Shown here one piece after another: positions 1-20,000 of a DNA stretch of 20,000 nt. The translations under genes and the position numbers were made by a program. The stretch is taken from NCBI RefSeq assembly GCF_004010195.1, contig NC_057719.1, forward strand, positions 39,032,029 to 39,052,028, in the 5' to 3' direction. Origin of the DNA: Chiloscyllium plagiosum. Taxonomy: Eukaryota. The notes beneath the pieces were generated by a model. The model saw nothing but the letters and a program-made list of their open reading frames with translations. It did no database searches and was not told the DNA's origin. Every line of letters starts with the position of its first letter. The stretch's first letter is position 1.

Positions 1-418
1 GGTGTCCCAAACGTATGTGGGAAGTTCCTGGACTTGGGGGATAGGACAGTATCGAGGTAGGAGAGGAGTTCGGTGGGGCAGAAACAGGCTGAGACGATGG
101 GTCAGCTGGGGTGATTAGACTTGTGGATCTTGGGAAGGAGGTAGAATCGGGCGGTGCAGGGTTCCAAAACTATGAGGTTGGAAGCTGTCGGTGGGAGATC
201 TCCTGAGGTGATGAGATTGCGTATGGTCTGGAAAATGATGGTTTGATGGGGTGTGAGGTCATGGTTGAGGGGGCGGTATGAGGAGGTGTCTTCGAGTTGG
301 TGCCTGGCTTCAGCAGTGTAGAGGTCGGTGCGCCAAACTACCACTTCACCCCCTTTGTCTGTTGGTTTGATGGTGAGGTTGGGATTGGTTCCGCTGGTTT
401 GATGGCGAGGTTGGGATT
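1..418 (-). mobile_element. Penelope-like retroelement (PLE) fragment, N-terminal RT region, decayed; continues off the left edge
   Basis: Minus ORF gives IKPTDKGGEVVVW...Y..EA..QL.D...ARFYLLPKIHK, then past a TGA: P-I-V-S-A-C-F-C-P-T-E. This matches the PLE RT motifs IKPADKG / PKIHK..P.RPIVS. The stop at 102-104 sits where Arg is expected. Confidence 0.85.
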
Positions 419-732
419 CCCAGGAATGGTCTGGGAAGCTGGGTTTGAATCCCACCATAGCAGATTGTGGAATTTGAACTTAAAAAATAATGAATCTGTA
501 ATTAAGAATATAACGATTACCATGAAACCACAGTTGATTGACAAAAAAACACATCTGGTTCACTAACATCCTTCTTTTAAAAAAACTGTCATCCTTAACT
601 GATCTAGTCTATATATGAGTCCAGACCCACAACCATGTGGTTGAGTCTCATCTGCCCTCTGGGCAATTAGGGATGGTCAATAAATGCTGACTTACCCAGA
701 GGTAACCTCACCCCATGGATGAGTAATAAAAA
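419..732 (+). mobile_element. tRNA-derived SINE, 5' part of head missing
   Basis: B-box-like GGTTTGAATCC at 442-452; body catctggttcactaa...ccagacccacaaccatgtggttga...gggcaattagggatggtcaataaatgctg; A-rich end. A homologous inverted copy lies at ~13495-13855. Confidence 0.8.
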
Positions 733-1674: not shown

Positions 1675-1703
1675 GTCAATAATGATGAAAAGTCACTTAC
1701 AGC

Positions 1704-1982
1704 GAGTTAGGTTGAAAGCTGAAGAGCAGGACAAGTAGAATAGTGATCTCAGGTTTGCTACTGGTGCCACGAGATCGTGAGATGAGGAACAGCCAGTGAA
1801 TGCAGCTTAACATGTGGCTGCGAGGCTGGTGCAGGAGGGAGGGCTTCAGATACCTAGACCATTGGGATACCTTCTGGGGAAGGTGGGACCTGTACATGAA
1901 GGACGGGTTGCACCTGAACTGGAGGGGCACAAATGTCCTGGGTGGCAGATTTACTCGTGTGATTCAGGAGGGTTTAAACTAG
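1704..1982 (+). pseudogene. CR1 ORF1 C-terminus, SGNH/GDSL esterase domain
   Basis: RIVISGLL.VPR...QLNMWLRGWCRREGFRYLDHW...DGLHLN (block V D-x-x-H) ending GLN*; internal stops. Confidence 0.85.
1970..1982 (+). other. Candidate -1 ribosomal frameshift site (G GGT TTA AAC TAG) at the CR1 ORF1/ORF2 junction
   Basis: TTTAAAC at 1973-1979 is in X-XXY-YYZ phase of ORF1 (codons start 1971, 1974, 1977); stop at 1980-1982; the ORF2 frame is -1 and open across the site. Confidence 0.55.
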
Positions 1983-3046
1983 TTTGGCAGGGGGGTGGGA
2001 ATCAGAGCCACATGTCTAAGAGGGGGTCAGTTGCAGATGGGGCAGTCACAGAATGTATTGAATCTATCAGGAAAGTTTCTCACGCGATGAAACAAAGGGA
2101 TTGGTTAAAGTGTGTCTGCTTTAATGCAAGGAGTGTCCAAAATAAGAGTGACGAACTTAGAGCATGGATCAGTACTTGGGGCTACGATATTGTGGCCATA
2201 ATGGAGACATCGGTTTCACTGGGGCAGGAATGGTTGCTTGATGTTCCAGGGTTTAGAATGTTTAAAAAGAACAGGGGCGGAGGGGTGGAAAATGAGGAGG
2301 GGATATCGCATTGCTAATCAGAGAGTGCATCACAGCTACAGAAACGAAGGTTGTTGAGGAAGGTTTGTCTACTGAGCCAGTATGGGTGGAAGTTAGGAAC
2401 AACAAGGGAACAGTCACCACACTGGGGGCTTTCTACAGACCACCTATTAGCTGTAGAGAGATTGAAGAACTCAATAGGCGGGCAGATTCTGGAAAAATGC
2501 AGAAGTAGCAGGATTGTTGTTATAGGTGATTTCAACTTTCCCAACATCGACTGGAACTTCCTAAGTGCAGATGGTTTGGATGGAACCTTTTTTGTCAGGT
2601 GTGTTCAGGACGGTTTCCTTATTCAGTATGTAGACAGATCGACGAGGGGAGAGGCCATTTTGGATTTGGTGCTCAGCAATGAGCCAGGACAGGTGTCAGA
2701 TCTCGCGGTGGGAGAGCACTTTGGTGACAGTGATCACAACTGCCTCACATTTACCATAGCCTTGGAGAGTGAAAGGAGCAGTTACTGAGGGAAGATATTT
2801 AATTGGGGAAAAGGAAATTATGACGCTATCAGACAGGAATTGGGAAGTGCAGACTGGGAGCAATTGTTCCACAGAAAGGGCATAGCAGACATGTGGAGAC
2901 TATTTAAGGAGCAGTTGTTGCAAGTGATACAAAAAATTTGTTCCTCTGAGATAGGTAAGAAGGGGTAAGATTAAGGAACCTTGGATGACGAGAACAGAGG
3001 AACTTTTCGTCAAAAGGAAGAAGGCAGCTTACGTAAGGTGGGGGAA
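1979..3046 (+). pseudogene. CR1 ORF2 N-terminal APE endonuclease region, frameshifted
   Basis: ORF pieces 1814-2317, 2311-2508 and 2351-2788 tile one APE domain; stop at 2786-2788; no plus-strand RT domain follows. Confidence 0.85.
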
Positions 3047-3238
3047 GTAGTGGACCCAGCACTGATCCTTGTGGCACACCACTGGTCACAGGCCTTCAGT
3101 CTGAAAAGCAATCCTCCACCACCAACCTCTGTCTTCTACCTTCAAGCTAGTTCTATATCCAAATGGCCAGTATTCTATATGATCTAACCTTGCTTACCAA
3201 TCTACCATGAGGAATCTTGTTAAACAGAAGTCCATATG
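3047..3238 (-). mobile_element. CR1 reverse transcriptase fragment in opposite orientation
   Basis: Minus strand reads ...PHGRLVSKVRS...VTSGVPQGSVLGPLL, the CR1 RT motif GVPQGSVLGP. Confidence 0.85.
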
Positions 3239-6176: not shown

Positions 6177-6321
6177 GATTCTGTAGAACTGCTGTGGACA
6201 GCTCTGCCTAACAGCCAAGGCATACCAGTGTTTTTTGCCATCCCTGGCCAACTTATGTGGTGGAATCATTAGTTTAAAATCTTACAGAACACATACTTGT
6301 TAATATTTGGGATTGGGAAGG

Positions 6322-7196
6322 ATGCCAAAGGGAAAAAGAGCAAGCAAACAGCAGCACGGAGGACACTCCCCTGCAGCACCGGGTACACCAGAGACTGCAG
6401 CAGCAGCAGCTTCTCCTGAACCCCCCGGGAACCTGACAGACTCACGGGAATGGGCTGCAGCGACGGAGAGACCTATCTTGAAAGTTGTGGCTGCGATTGA
6501 GGAAATCCGTGGGGAGATTCGTGCCCAGGTCCAACCTATTGCATCCATGCTGCAGAAGCATGAGCAGGAGATCCAGGGCCTCGGGGAGAGGCTAGAGGAG
6601 GTGGAGGGTCGAACTAAGGCCTCAGAAGCTGCAATGGAGTCCTCATCCAGTCGGATCCAAGTGCTGGAGAGAGAGGTCTTGCGAAACCATATCGACGACC
6701 TCAAAAATCGAGGTTGGAGGATAAATCTCCGAATTGTCGGGCTCCCTGAAGGTGAGGAAGGTGAGCAGCCAGTCAGCTTGTTTGAAAGCAGGCTGCCGAA
6801 ATTTTTGGGCCTTCAGATGGAGTCCAGCAGGCTTCAGATTGAAAGGGTGTATCGGGTTACAGTGCAAGGTCAGGCCCAGTGCAGCATCTCTGCTCAGTCC
6901 TAGTGCACATCTATTCATATAAGGACAAGCAAAAAGTCATAGAAGCTTCTAGATCCCTGGGAAAAGATCCACAGGCACTGCTGTGCAAGGGGTCAAAAAT
7001 CATGTTTTTCCAGGATTTTTCAGCAGCTGTAATTCGAAAGAGGAAGTCCTTCGATGAAGTTAAAAAGAGGCTGAGAAATCTGGGCATCCAGTACTCCACG
7101 AGATACCCTGCAGTGCTTCGTTTCAGCCACGAGGACTCAGTTTATACATTTGACTCGGTGGATAAGGCTAAAGACTTTGTGGACACTTTAAAATAG
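6322..7196 (+). pseudogene. L1 ORF1 (coiled coil, RRM, CTD), frameshifted near 6870-6900
   Basis: Heptad region LQKHEQEIQGLGERLEEVEGR; RINLRIVGLPEGEEG; IERVYR; FFQDFS...KRKSF...YPAVLR. Confidence 0.9.
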
Positions 7197-7796
7197 ATGG
7201 ATTGGCCTGAAGAATATGGTTAATGTTTGTTCTCTTTTCTATCTTTCCCCATGTTTTCCCTTCTTTTTTTTATTCCTTTCTGACTCCCTAATAATTTCCT
7301 TTTTGGAAAATGGGGAAAAGATTGTGGAATAAGTTGTTCCTATTTTTTTGAATAACTGGATTTTCTGATGGGAAATTTTGTGGATGTTCTTTGTTGTCTC
7401 TCCCTTTTTTTTGTTTGTTCTGCTTCTCTTTAGTCACAAGTAGGGGTGACATGAAGCCAAGGATGGGTGACTTTGTCTTTTTTTCTGTTGATTTAAGGAT
7501 CATCTCCTTGTTTTTTTTTCTGGCCTAAGGCTGGGGCACAGTCCAGGTTTGAAGGAGCTGTGAAGGAGGGGATGGGTAGGGCGAGTGCCCCCTATGGGCA
7601 GGTGGAAGAGACTTCCATTCAAGGTTCTATAGTTGGTTTTCTTTGTAGTTTTTTGGTATAATAGTTGTTTATAGTTATGATAGAGTAGTTTTTGTATATA
7701 TAGTTTTTCAATTCTATGAGTCTTTATTTACTTATGCGCAGTACTTTGTAAGCAGAGTTGTCCCTCCGAGGGGTTCAAGGGTGTCTGAAAGGGGAT

Positions 7797-10700
7797 ATGG
7801 CTAAGTGTCTTATTAAATGGTGCACCTGAAACATTAAGGGAAGTCATTCACCTGTTAAAAGGAAAAAAAGTGCTTTCTAGCCTTAAGAGGGAAAGGGTTG
7901 ATATCGCTTTGTTGCAGGAAACCCATCATGATGATGGGGAACACCTGAAATTACAACAGGGGGATTATGACAGGGTATTCTTTTCATTCTTTACCAGTAA
8001 AAGTAGGGGAGTGGCAGTACTTATACAAAAAATCATCCGTTCACATTATTAGAGCAGGTGAAAGACAAGCAGGGATGGTTTGTGATACTTAAAGCCCTGA
8101 TACATGGGGAGAAATGTGGCATTTTAAACATTTACTGTCCTCCGGTGCATCCCCTCAAATTTTTGATTAGAGCTTTCTCTAAGTTGAGTGCTTTTGGAAC
8201 ACGGCACATTATTATAGGGGGGGATTTTAATTGTTTTTGGATCCGACAGTGGACAGGATGCCTTGTGGGCCCCCAATTATTTCTTCGCAGGCCAAGCAGG
8301 TGGTTGACTTATGCAAGGAGTTGGGTCTGGTGGATATTTGGAGATGTCTTCACCCTACCGGCAGGGACTTTACCTTTTTTTCAAATCCACATAAATGTCA
8401 CACAAGGACTGACCTCTTTCTGGCTCCCTCAGCCCTTCTGGATTCGATTATGGGTTGTAAAATTGGGAATAAAGCTATCTCTGATCACACAGCAGTATAT
8501 TTGGAGGTTAAGGCCAAGAGTGAAGGGCTAGGTTTGCGGCACTGGCGTTTGGACCCTTTTCTCCTTAAGGATTCCAAATTTGTGGAATACTTTTTGAAGG
8601 AGTTTCAGGAATTCTTGATTATCAACTCAGGCACGGCTAGTAGTCCATCTATGCTATGGGAGACTGCTAAGGCTTTTGCGAGGGGATTAGCTATTTCCTA
8701 TTCGGCTAGCTGGAAATGACAGGAGGAGGAACAGCAGCGTCTTTTTGAGACACGGTTGAAAGCCGCGGAGGCAGCACATTTTGCGCGGCCTTCGGTGACT
8801 AAGCTACAGTGGATCATGGCCCTTCGGGTTGCCTTGAATTCAATACTGACACAAAACGCAAAGAAAGAACTTCCTTTTGCTAAACAGAGGCTGTTCGTAT
8901 ACGAGGATAGGCCAGGGAAGTATTTAGCGTACCTGACTAGGAAAAAGCGTGCTCCCCAATCCATTACTGCAATCAGAGACAGCGCCAGGGTCCTTACATA
9001 CGATGCTAAAAAGATTAATGAGGCTTTTCGGAGCTTTTACTCTGAATTGTATCAGTCTGAAGGTTGCAAAGACAGGAGGACTAAAATGAAGGCCACTTTT
9101 AAGAACCTGGACCTCCCAGGGGTAACCTTGGAACAGGCCTCTCTCCTTAATGTCTCCTTGATAGTTCAGGAAATACAGAAGGCAGCTAGGCAACTTCAGA
9201 GTGGGAAAGCGCCTGGCCCTGATGGTCTTCCGGGTGAGTTTTATAAGGAGTTTATAGGGATTCTGTCAGGGCCAATGTTGGAGATGTACAATCACTCCTA
9301 TATACATGAATGCATACCACCGTCTTTTAGAAAAGCTAATATTTCCTTAATTCTTAAGAAGGGGAAGGTTCCTGAGGATTGTGCCTCATACAAGCCCATC
9401 TCTCTATTAAATTCAGAGATCAAGATTCTGTCCAAGATCCTGAGATTGGAAAGGGTGTTGCCCCATACTATTAAAGAGGACCAGACAGTCTTTATAAGGG
9501 GCCGTAGGTCCTCTAATAATATTAGAAGGTTGCTGAATGTGGTCCAAGTTTGTCAGCAATGATCGGATTCAGGGGTTGGTGATTTCCTTAGATGCAGAGA
9601 AAGCATTTGACCGGGTGGAATGGCCGTATCTTTTTTATGTCTTAGAACAGTTCGGGTTGGGTGGGGTCTTTGCTCGGTGGGTGGAGGTTTTATATCGCAA
9701 CCCTCTGGCTGCGGTCATCACCAACGGGGTGAAGTCTGGGAATTTTACGATTGGTAGGGGTAGTCGGCAAGGCTGCCCCCTCTCACCGTTGTTGTTTACA
9801 TTGGTGATAGAGCCACTGGCAGAGTCCATTCGTCAGAACATCCACATAACCGCTCCAGAAGTGGGATCGAGGGCACACAAGATTACACTGTACGCGGATG
9901 ATGTCCTTCTGTTTTTAATCGAACCCGATGACCTCTGTACCCTATTTGGTACAATGTATCCATTCATTTGGGGCTATTTCAGGATATAAGATTAACTTTG
10001 CAAAATCGGAGGCTATGCCTTTGGGGAGCCTTAAGGATGTGCCAGAAGTTGAAGGTGGCCCTAAGTTCCCTTTTAAGTGGTCATGGGCAGGGTTCCGACA
10101 CCCAGGCATTTTTATTACCCCTAAGTTTGATCTGTTATTTCGGACTAACTTTGCTCACTTGCTCGACAATATTAGGCGGGATCTCCAGAGATAGGGGACT
10201 GTTCCAATTTCATGGTTGGGCCGAATATCTCTCATTAAGATTAATGTTCTTCCTCGTTTGCTTTATTCCATGCTATTGCTCCCTATAATGTTTCCCAGGT
10301 CAACGCTGTGGAAGCTTATGGGGTGGTTTGGTTCCTTTGTCTGGCATCATGGGCAGCCCCTCATCAAACTTACTAAATTGCAGTTGCCTCAAGGAGGGGG
10401 AGGAGTTAATTTCCCAGACATCAGGAGGTATCAATTGAATTCTTTGCTGTCCTTTATCTGTGATTGGCTCGGTAACGATCCAAGCTCAATATGGCTGGAT
10501 ATTGAGGCCTCCCAAGCAAAGTGTCCTCTTATTAACCTGTTGTTCATGGATAAGATGAGGACAGTTATGGACCACTTCCGGAACCCCATTGTCATTAGTA
10601 CAGTCAGGGCTTGAAGGGCGATGCATCAGAGTGAGAGTTGTTTATCCAAGACTTCGCTACTTACACCTATAGTTGGCATGCCGGGATTCCGACCAGGGAT

Positions 10701-11609
10701 GATGGACTCAGGATTCAAACTATGGGCAGCAAGAGGAGTTTCTAGTTTGGGAGACTTGTTTGAGGGGGACGTTATGATGTCTTTTGAGCAACTGAGCTGC
10801 AAATACGGGTTACCCAGCAGAGATCTTTCTGTTTTTTTCAGATAAGGGATTTCATCCAGAAGAAGACTACATTTCTCACTAAGCCCTATAAACCAGATAC
10901 AGAGAGGTTGTTGCTACGTTCCACAAGCACCCTTTTTTTTTTAGTGCCCTGTATTGCCTGCTAGGTGGCAGGGCCTGGCAGGATATTAACCGGTTATGTG
11001 AGGTCTGGCAGCAAGAGCTAGGAGTGGAGATCTCTTTTGAAACATGGGAGAACATATGGGAGAATACTCAAAAGATCTCAATCTGTAATAGGACATGCGC
11101 TACGCAGTTACAAGTTCTGCACAGGACTCATCTGGCACCAGACCGTCTGGCGAAGTTTTAAAAAGGGGCATCTTCAGTGTGCCCCAAATGTAAAATAAGT
11201 GTAGGTACTCTTACCCATTGCTTCTGGACATGCCGCAGGCTCAGTGTTTATTGGAGCACTGTGGCGGGAGAGATAGCGCGGGTATTGAGGACTGAAGTCA
11301 AAGTAGACCCGATATCTCTCCTCTTCGGTCTACCGAATTTACCATCTTTAGACGGGCATGGGAAGAAACTATTTAATATTCTTGCATACTGTGCACAGAA
11401 GAATATTCTGATGAATTGGATGTCTGAGAACCTGCCGGGCTTACTGGGATTGCAGAAATTAATTATGGAGCACATTCCCTTTGACTTTTTTACAAACATG
11501 GTGCACCACACAACAAGTAGGGCTGCCATGTTTTTATAAGACATGGCAGCCCTACTGGAGTTATTTGGAAACAAATTTGTCAGTTGTCATAACTAGGGCG
11601 TTTGTTTAA
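7797..11609 (+). pseudogene. L1 ORF2 (APE endonuclease, RT, C-terminal CCHC), multiple stops and frameshifts
   Basis: T*NIKG, LLQETH, GGDFN, ISDH; GKAPGPDG, LDAEKAFDRVEW, RQGCPLSPLLF, YADD (9891-9902); CPKC-x7-H-x4-C; ends ...TRAFV*. Confidence 0.92.
11516..11556. repeat. Perfect 16-bp inverted repeat with 9-nt spacer
   Basis: AGTAGGGCTGCCATGT (11516-11531) / ACATGGCAGCCCTACT (11541-11556). Confidence 0.95.
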
Positions 11610-19465: not shown

Positions 19466-20000
19466 GCACAGATAGGCGGTTCTGTGGGGGCGAGAGAGAC
19501 TGACGTTTGGTATGTTTCCTCTCAGGTGCAAGGGTACGTGACGTCTCTGATCGTGTTTTCCGGGTCCTTAAGGGGGAGGGGGAGCAGCCCGAAGTCGTGG
19601 TCCACATTGGCACCAACGACATAGGTAGGAGGAGGGCTAAGGATGTTAGGCAGGCTTTCAGGGAGCTAGGTTGGAAGTTCAGAGTTAGAATGAACAGAGT
19701 TGTTGTCTCTGGTTTGTTACCGGTGCCACGTGATAGAGAGTCGAGGAATAGGGAGAGAGAACAGTTAAATGCGTGGCTACAGGGATGATGCAGGAGGGAG
19801 GGATTCTGGTATCTGGATAACTGGGGTTCTTTCTGGGGAAGGTGGGACCTCTATAAACAGGATGGTGTACACCTGAACCTGAGGGGCACCAGTATCCTTG
19901 GTGGGAGGTTTGCTAGTGCTCTTGGGGAGGGGGATTTAAACTAACTCTGCAGGGGCATGGGAACCCAGACTGTAGCTTTAGGGTGCAGAACCTGGAGTGT
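19466..20000 (+). mobile_element. CR1 LINE, 5'-truncated within ORF1 SGNH esterase; continues off the right edge
   Basis: VCFLSGARVRDV, VVVHIGTND (block III), VVVSGLLPVPR, DGVHLN, ending GDLN* at 19944; one W-to-TGA at 19786. Confidence 0.92.
19935..19944 (+). other. Candidate -1 frameshift site (T TTA AAC TAA), second CR1 copy
   Basis: TTTAAAC at 19935-19941 is in ORF1 phase (TTA 19936, AAC 19939); stop at 19942-19944; the -1 frame is open to the window end. Confidence 0.55.

Follow-up and report, generated by a model that had tools for sequence, protein, structure and literature searches.

A fixed slippery heptamer at the ORF1/ORF2 junction suggests programmed -1 frameshifting in esterase-ORF1 CR1-type LINEs

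The window, i.e. the whole stretch of 20,000 nucleotides of Chiloscyllium plagiosum DNA analysed here (contig NC_057719.1, positions 39,032,029 to 39,052,028, forward strand), carries near its start a decayed fragment of a CR1-type LINE that spans the boundary between the two open reading frames (ORFs) of the element, and at its end a 5'-truncated second CR1 copy from another subfamily (group B; 19468-20000, + strand). The features on which the analysis is built are as follows (window coordinates, all on the + strand).

1686-3062 (approximate), +: decayed CR1-type LINE fragment with the end of ORF1, the junction and the endonuclease part of ORF2; reverse transcriptase (RT) lost
1698-1982, +: 3' remnant of ORF1 (SGNH/GDSL esterase), with internal stops at 1713 and 1797, ending in ...QEGLN-TAG
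1970-1976, +: overlapping heptamer G GGT TTA, lineage-specific (5 of 10 groups of copies)
1973-1979, +: conserved heptamer T TTA AAC (U_UUA_AAC), the predicted -1 shift site; exact in 137 of 154 grouped copies and the majority form in 10 of 10 groups
1980-1982, +: ORF1 stop codon TAG directly 3' of the heptamer; the stop is adjacent in 9 of 10 groups and one codon later in group D
1986-1999, +: G-rich tract GG-CA-GGGGGG-T-GGG, a candidate stimulator whose sequence is conserved
2012-2014, +: first in-frame ATG of ORF2, in weak context; kept in 30 of 30 copies of group A, not across subfamilies
1973-2317, +: -1 frame with a 50-codon linker followed by the start of the APE endonuclease (Asn of FNARS at 2123), broken by a stop at 2315-2317
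19935-19944, +: heptamer (19935-19941) followed by TAA in the second, diverged CR1 copy

The first fragment shares approximately 88-91% identity with its siblings, and since blastn matches begin at 1685-1696 and stop at 3047-3062, it is truncated at both its 5' and 3' ends. It belongs to a family with thousands of related copies in the 3.56 Gb genome (5127 first-look candidates in the genome search). Pfam searches of the window identified a GDSL lipase in the ORF1 frame (E-value 1.3e-4), Exo_endo_phos in the -1 frame (3.6e-3) and Exo_endo_phos_2 in the next piece (8.6e-9); the RT domain (RVT_1) was found in the siblings L265 (6e-24) and L274. Relatives of ORF1 comprise an N-terminus with Cys pairs, a coiled-coil-like stretch and an SGNH esterase, and their best match in the PDB is the retrotransposon ORF1 esterase 4C1B (E-value 1.3e-39). 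The closest named proteins come from sharks and rays. We assign the element provisionally to the CR1 type, judging from the layout of its ORF1 and from its kin among the proteins of birds, frogs and rays. The 3' ends of CR1 elements carry short tandem repeats instead of poly(A), and a candidate for such an end is a short repeat of the (TTCTATG) type in the sibling L268, some 890 nt past the RT motif, with one unit in L265. Because of the truncation and the stops in ORF1 (1713, 1797) and ORF2 (2315), the window copy is unable to express either protein, and the question of frameshifting therefore concerns the family; the window copy itself is a dead relic of the slippery-junction design that still carries the signal. 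In four RNA runs the coverage of the locus was too thin to weigh, with 51 reads in one run and none in another, and with no GT..AG joint among the eight listed.

Other elements are present in the window and among the related proteins. A broken LINE, which we take to be L1-like from its motifs, occupies approximately 6300-11540 (+), in which frames resembling a coiled-coil ORF1 lie at 6304-7196, pieces resembling an endonuclease near 7800-8700 and an RT at 9537-9986 (RVT_1, E-value 2.7e-19). A frame of 125 aa at 102-479 (-) gave no Pfam match; its motifs (KPTDKGG...FYLLPKIHK) are presumably those of the RTs of Penelope-like retroelements. A protein labelled as a GDSL hydrolase of Pseudomonas aeruginosa (P0007) ends in REGLN and shares 74% identity with the ORF1 piece of the second CR1 copy, and is probably a contamination with fish DNA. 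Ray gene models in the NCBI (P0045, P0055 and P0016) contain pieces of CR1 ORF1 and ORF2 under the names of host genes (hydroxyacid oxidase 2, ribosomal protein S24); they are probably annotation artefacts, or possibly exonised repeats.

The first-pass annotation of the window had proposed that the junction is a -1 ribosomal frameshift cassette, and all the features that it names were found where it puts them. ORF1 ends in GAG GGT TTA AAC TAG (1968-1982, GAG starting at 1968), in which the two overlapping heptamers are both in the ORF1 phase. According to the available text of PMC3542737, a heptamer of the type X_XXY_YYZ in phase with the upstream frame defines a -1 signal, and T TTA AAC at 1973-1979 is of this type. 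The endonuclease frame is indeed -1 and is open across the site (1811-2314), where it reads FKLVWQGGGNQSHM...LKCVCFNARS; the G-rich tract lies 3' of the site, with G-runs at 1990-1995 and 1997-1999; and the in-frame ATG at 2012 has the weak context CAC ATG T, with a second in-frame ATG at 2087. The TGGC and GCCA letters of a proposed stem are also present (1985-1988 and 2007-2010), but neither folding nor conservation supports their pairing, as discussed below.

To study the family, 179 junctions were gathered by searches of the same genome and from fetched stretches, using the esterase His motif as an anchor and queries that exclude the end of ORF1. Five duplicates were removed and 18 more junctions were set aside: five masked at the junction, eight truncated or rearranged, two spurious, and three single copies (L225, L072 and L129) that were treated apart. 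The working set comprised 154 copies in ten groups, plus the single copies L203 and L128. The groups share 49-80% DNA identity between clusters (A and F result from the manual division of one cluster, and two clusters were combined into G), and as they are mutually related, counts across groups are not independent. Evenly spaced stretches of the genome, 400 kb in total, yielded three junctions. At least five of the group B copies (L047, L050, L051, L057 and L060) have a stop right after the first Met-Ala of ORF2, and may perhaps represent a non-autonomous sub-lineage copied in trans, or else a mutation hotspot.

At fixed positions counted from the esterase His anchor, the last three codons of ORF1 are NNT-TTA-AAC in all ten groups. 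For the codon control, group J (two copies, one of them frameshifted upstream) was excluded and nine groups were compared. In all nine the Leu and Asn codons are fixed as T-TTA-AAC rather than drifting among synonyms, while in the same ORF1 stretch outside this site TTA accounts for only 8 of 75 Leu codons and AAC for 22 of 45 Asn codons. The codon that precedes TTA-AAC is GGT in five groups and GTT, CAT, ACT or GCT in the others, i.e. it encodes five different amino acids and invariably ends in T. A single codon was retained at only 4 of 40 positions with a conserved residue, and the third base was kept at 3 of 38 positions with a variable residue, the codon before TTA included. Canonical heptamers in phase occur at 1 of 729 interior codon positions of ORF1 in the nine groups, versus 9 of 9 at its end. 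Among the copies without the exact heptamer most differ from it by one base, as expected since the copies are decaying; an old single copy, L072, also lacks the exact form. Judging by these codon counts, the heptamer is conserved at the nucleotide level beyond the need of the protein. On the other hand, of the two heptamers noticed in the window only T TTA AAC is general, and the upstream G GGT TTA is a peculiarity of half of the groups. The adjacency of the stop codon likewise holds for most groups without being obligatory: in group D one sense codon separates the two, the stop having shifted away while the heptamer stayed. The stop that follows the heptamer is TAA in groups B, H, C, C2, E and G.

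Of the twelve groups, single copies included, eight have tallies that extend to the endonuclease with no stop in the linker (A, F, B, H, C, C2, D and L128). All eight place ORF2 at -1, as the first-pass annotation would have it, and the linker comprises 48, 50, 55, 59 or 69 codons. In group E the -1 frame is open but runs past the aligned stretch, and its copy L180 reads through in -1; groups G and J are too decayed for the tally to reach the endonuclease, and the decayed single copy L203 is in frame 0 with four stops. The endonuclease motif was located in 87 individual copies; 65 have it at -1 and 22 in another phase, which we tentatively attribute to decay by insertions and deletions. Upstream of the heptamer the -1 frame is closed one codon away in group D, three codons away in L128 and five codons away in groups B, H, C2 and G, therefore entry into it must in these cases take place at the heptamer or just before it.

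The same junctions bear on the possibility that ORF2 is translated by termination and reinitiation at a nearby AUG, either by coupling through a UAAUG overlap as in SART1 or by scanning over a short distance as far as the ATG at 2012, so that ORF1p and ORF2p are separate proteins. This route has been described for SART1 and L1 (available parts of PMC5972666 and PMC3708506), a TAATG stop-start overlap lies directly 3' of the heptamer in groups C and C2 (L062-L091), and the ATG of the window copy is kept throughout group A. However, no start codon is conserved across the family: the first in-frame Met codon is number 13 in group A, 27 in B, 3 in C and C2, 16 in D and 28 in L128, and none precedes the endonuclease in groups F and H (an ATG being present in 2 of 10 and 1 of 5 copies, respectively) or in the single copy L225, and L129 has no Met before residue 76, which falls within an endonuclease match starting at residue 29. 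The TAATG overlap is not a conserved feature either, as it is confined to 2 of the 10 groups and absent from the window copy. Moreover, reinitiation leaves unexplained both the fixed heptamer and the stretch from the heptamer to the ATG that is open in the -1 frame. We therefore regard reinitiation as an unlikely general mechanism, although it may serve as a side route in groups C and C2, which could use both frameshifting and reinitiation of the SART1 type.

Relatives of the element outside this genome provide a second view of the junction. At the protein level, ORF1 of rays, of the frogs Hyla sarda and Xenopus tropicalis and of the bird Rissa tridactyla ends in LN. We compiled 76 distinct ORF1 ends of distant relatives from the 150 listed representatives at 50% identity, taking those in which 20-70 residues separate the His motif from the end. 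According to the accessible text of PMC5009743, U_UUA_AAC, G_GGA_AAC and A_AAA_AAC are among the shiftiest heptamers, and as these encode LN, GN and KN, such endings are compatible with a slippery site. A compatible dipeptide terminates 44 of the 76 ends (LN 31, GN 10, KN 2 and KK 1; background 5.3%), and the remaining 32 are incompatible at the last dipeptide. Forty-eight ends have N as the final residue; before it stands L in 31, G in 10, E in 3, S in 2 and K in 2. Furthermore, 9 of the 10 GN ends have Q in front, and in 30 of the 31 LN ends the residue in front has a codon with T as its third base (P about 0.02, with the sequences not independent). In four database proteins that extend into the other frame, the residues at the place of the heptamer are FKL. 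No protein reading across the site was identified among 11 matches in a search for longer fused proteins, and two loci with 'open frames' of more than 1000 aa, considered as natural ORF1-ORF2 fusions, proved on inspection to be runs of N.

Junctions at the DNA level outside this genome come from metagenomes: among 42 metagenome loci, two are LINE junctions (L128 and L129), with 33-36% identity to a frog-type query and with the esterase followed by the endonuclease. L128 reads G TTA AAC TAG, where GUU is a tolerated variant, and L129 reads G GAT TTT CAC TAA, matching pea enation mosaic virus both in the heptamer and in the distance to the stop, a stop that is of importance in the virus. Both appear to be intact LINEs with an esterase ORF1, and since the available part of PMC4120745 reports this type of ORF1 only from vertebrate CR1/L2 groups, the identity of their host is of interest at the level of phyla. 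In the GTDB genomes there were 16 weak matches, in contigs titled bacterial, and no matches to the junction element were found in viral contigs, plasmids or phages.

These relatives help to evaluate another explanation, according to which ORF2 starts independently of AUG at the ORF1 stop, as in L1, and the heptamer is frozen merely because it encodes LN in ORF1 and FKL in the overlapping ORF2. An AUG-independent start is considered likely for ORF2 of L1 (PMC5009743, in the accessible text), dual coding can indeed freeze codons, and the stop is never more than one codon away from the heptamer. Nonetheless, the codons for FKL precede the stop, and those of group D come one codon after a stop in the -1 frame, so that FKL could hardly be reached except by a shift. 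Besides, the distant lineages swap LN for GN, KN or DF, which correspond to other slippery classes and not to similar residues. These observations make an AUG-independent start very unlikely, and point again to a shift at the heptamer.

What would stimulate such a shift is less clear, and here the frameshift model is at its weakest. The TGGC/GCCA stem suggested for the window copy fails in this role, as it is lineage-specific and folding and covariation analyses revealed no conserved stem: the fold of the window is no better than those of shuffled sequences (z = +1.95 and +0.09), there are no consensus pairs downstream of the heptamer among 16 diverse sequences, and no conserved stem-loop or pseudoknot was found 5-9 nt downstream by stem folding and covariation. 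A long-range partner for the G-tract was sought within -900/+1400 nt, but the best sites share no common offset. The G-tract itself is conserved at +9 to +20 after the heptamer, with G at +11, +12, +14 and +18 in all ten groups, and in each of the 8 groups where its two Gly codons are both present they are GGG, versus 26 of 79 Gly codons in ORF1. The tract occupies the usual place of the stem-loop and is a candidate stimulator that may act as a quadruplex, by protein binding or otherwise. Quadruplexes 5-8 nt after UUUAAAC stimulate -1 shifts to about 7% at most, using G3 tracts (PMC3919603, available text); ViennaRNA predicts a two-tier quadruplex from 7 nt past the heptamer in groups A, F and C only (3 of 9 sets).

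The combination of an A+T-rich motif and a G-tract could alternatively have been kept for a role outside translation, e.g. as a splice or processing signal, an internal promoter or a site of polymerase or RT slippage, with ORF2 made from another RNA; G-rich sequences can stimulate slippage of reverse transcriptase (PMC5737552, in part). Yet the motif always stays in the codon phase of ORF1 with ORF2 at -1, the AG of the TAG stop is not conserved, as evidenced by the groups with TAA, and the types of heptamer covary with the rules for slippery sites, all of which renders a non-translational role extremely unlikely.

Three outcomes that the first-pass annotation had named as refuting its proposal, namely free synonymous variation at the heptamer, a variable phase of ORF2 and a conserved ORF2 ATG, did not occur. 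Taken together, the fixed heptamer, the -1 phase of ORF2 and the lack of a conserved ATG support the gag-pol-style frameshift proposed by the first-pass annotation for this CR1 family, and on this comparative evidence it is likely that CR1-type LINEs with an esterase ORF1 make their endonuclease and RT by programmed -1 frameshifting at the U_UUA_AAC that ends ORF1. Most ribosomes would terminate at the ORF1 stop and release ORF1p, and a minority would pause, probably aided by the stop codon and by the G-tract 9-20 nt downstream. The tRNA-Leu and tRNA-Asn would then re-pair from UUA-AAC to UUU-AAA by tandem slippage, the shifted ribosomes would continue as ...GLN-LVWQG..., and the product would be a fusion of ORF1p, linker, endonuclease and RT made in a low, fixed proportion, as gag-pol is. 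A broader version of this model, to which we give somewhat more belief than doubt, extends to sharks, frogs, birds and more distant animals: a -1 shift of the gag-pol style would be ancient and common to CR1 LINEs of the esterase type, its stimulator would be the stop codon with a short G-tract, unstructured or forming a quadruplex, in place of a hairpin or pseudoknot, and the esterase-endonuclease-RT fusion would be the active retrotransposase.

If this broader version holds, it would provide an undescribed answer to the question of how ORF2 is translated in a major LINE clade. The translation of ORF2 from a bicistronic LINE RNA is described as unclear (PMC3708506 and PMC5009743, accessible parts), and in chicken no interspersed repeat is more abundant than CR1 (PMC11835228, accessible part). 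The shift would fix the ratio of ORF1p to ORF2p and tether a membrane-binding esterase to the RT. It would also change the annotation of CR1 ORF2, whose starts would be incorrect where they have been set at an internal Met, as well as the design of retrotransposition assays for CR1, and would add a candidate frameshift stimulator that lacks the classical hairpin.

The architecture of the element is the same as that of vertebrate CR1 with ORF1 of type IVB (zinc finger/leucine zipper and esterase; CR1 subgroup 7), as given in the available part of PMC4120745. A frameshift signal for CR1 goes unmentioned in the accessible sections of that paper, PMC3905857 and PMC11835228, and no report of CR1 frameshifting was found in the literature searched, the coverage of which did not extend to the 1997 papers on chicken and turtle CR1, the 2003 esterase paper, supplements and Repbase descriptions. 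The statement of the first-pass annotation that the studied bicistronic LINEs use termination-reinitiation holds for SART1 and L1, but a -1 shift has been stated for other LINEs: for TRE5-A and TRE3-A of Dictyostelium, which are non-LTR elements of the APE type like CR1, a review (PMC5911963, in part) states that a -1 frameshift is required for translation of ORF2. Hosts and ORF1 differ between these elements and CR1; still, a LINE with a -1 shift has, by this statement, been described before. SART1 with its UAAUG and mammalian L1 with its unconventional reinitiation likewise have a bicistronic RNA, and TAATG recurs in groups C and C2; unlike them, however, CR1 exhibits neither a conserved AUG nor a conserved spacer, and its ORF2 frame overlaps ORF1 through the fixed slippery heptamer. 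With the coronavirus-type U_UUA_AAC and retroviral gag-pol, the CR1 junction shares the in-phase X_XXY_YYZ, a polymerase in the -1 frame and a structural gene upstream, and with pea enation mosaic virus, in which G_GAU_UUU is followed by a stop 3 nt past the site, the spacing seen in group D and L129. The viral -1 sites, however, have a stem-loop or pseudoknot 5-9 nt downstream, where the CR1 junction has the G-tract and no conserved structure. Frameshifting has been stated for other LINEs, and no description for CR1 was found in the literature searched; the CR1 junction is a real and conserved, ordinary-looking putative -1 site with an unusual downstream element.
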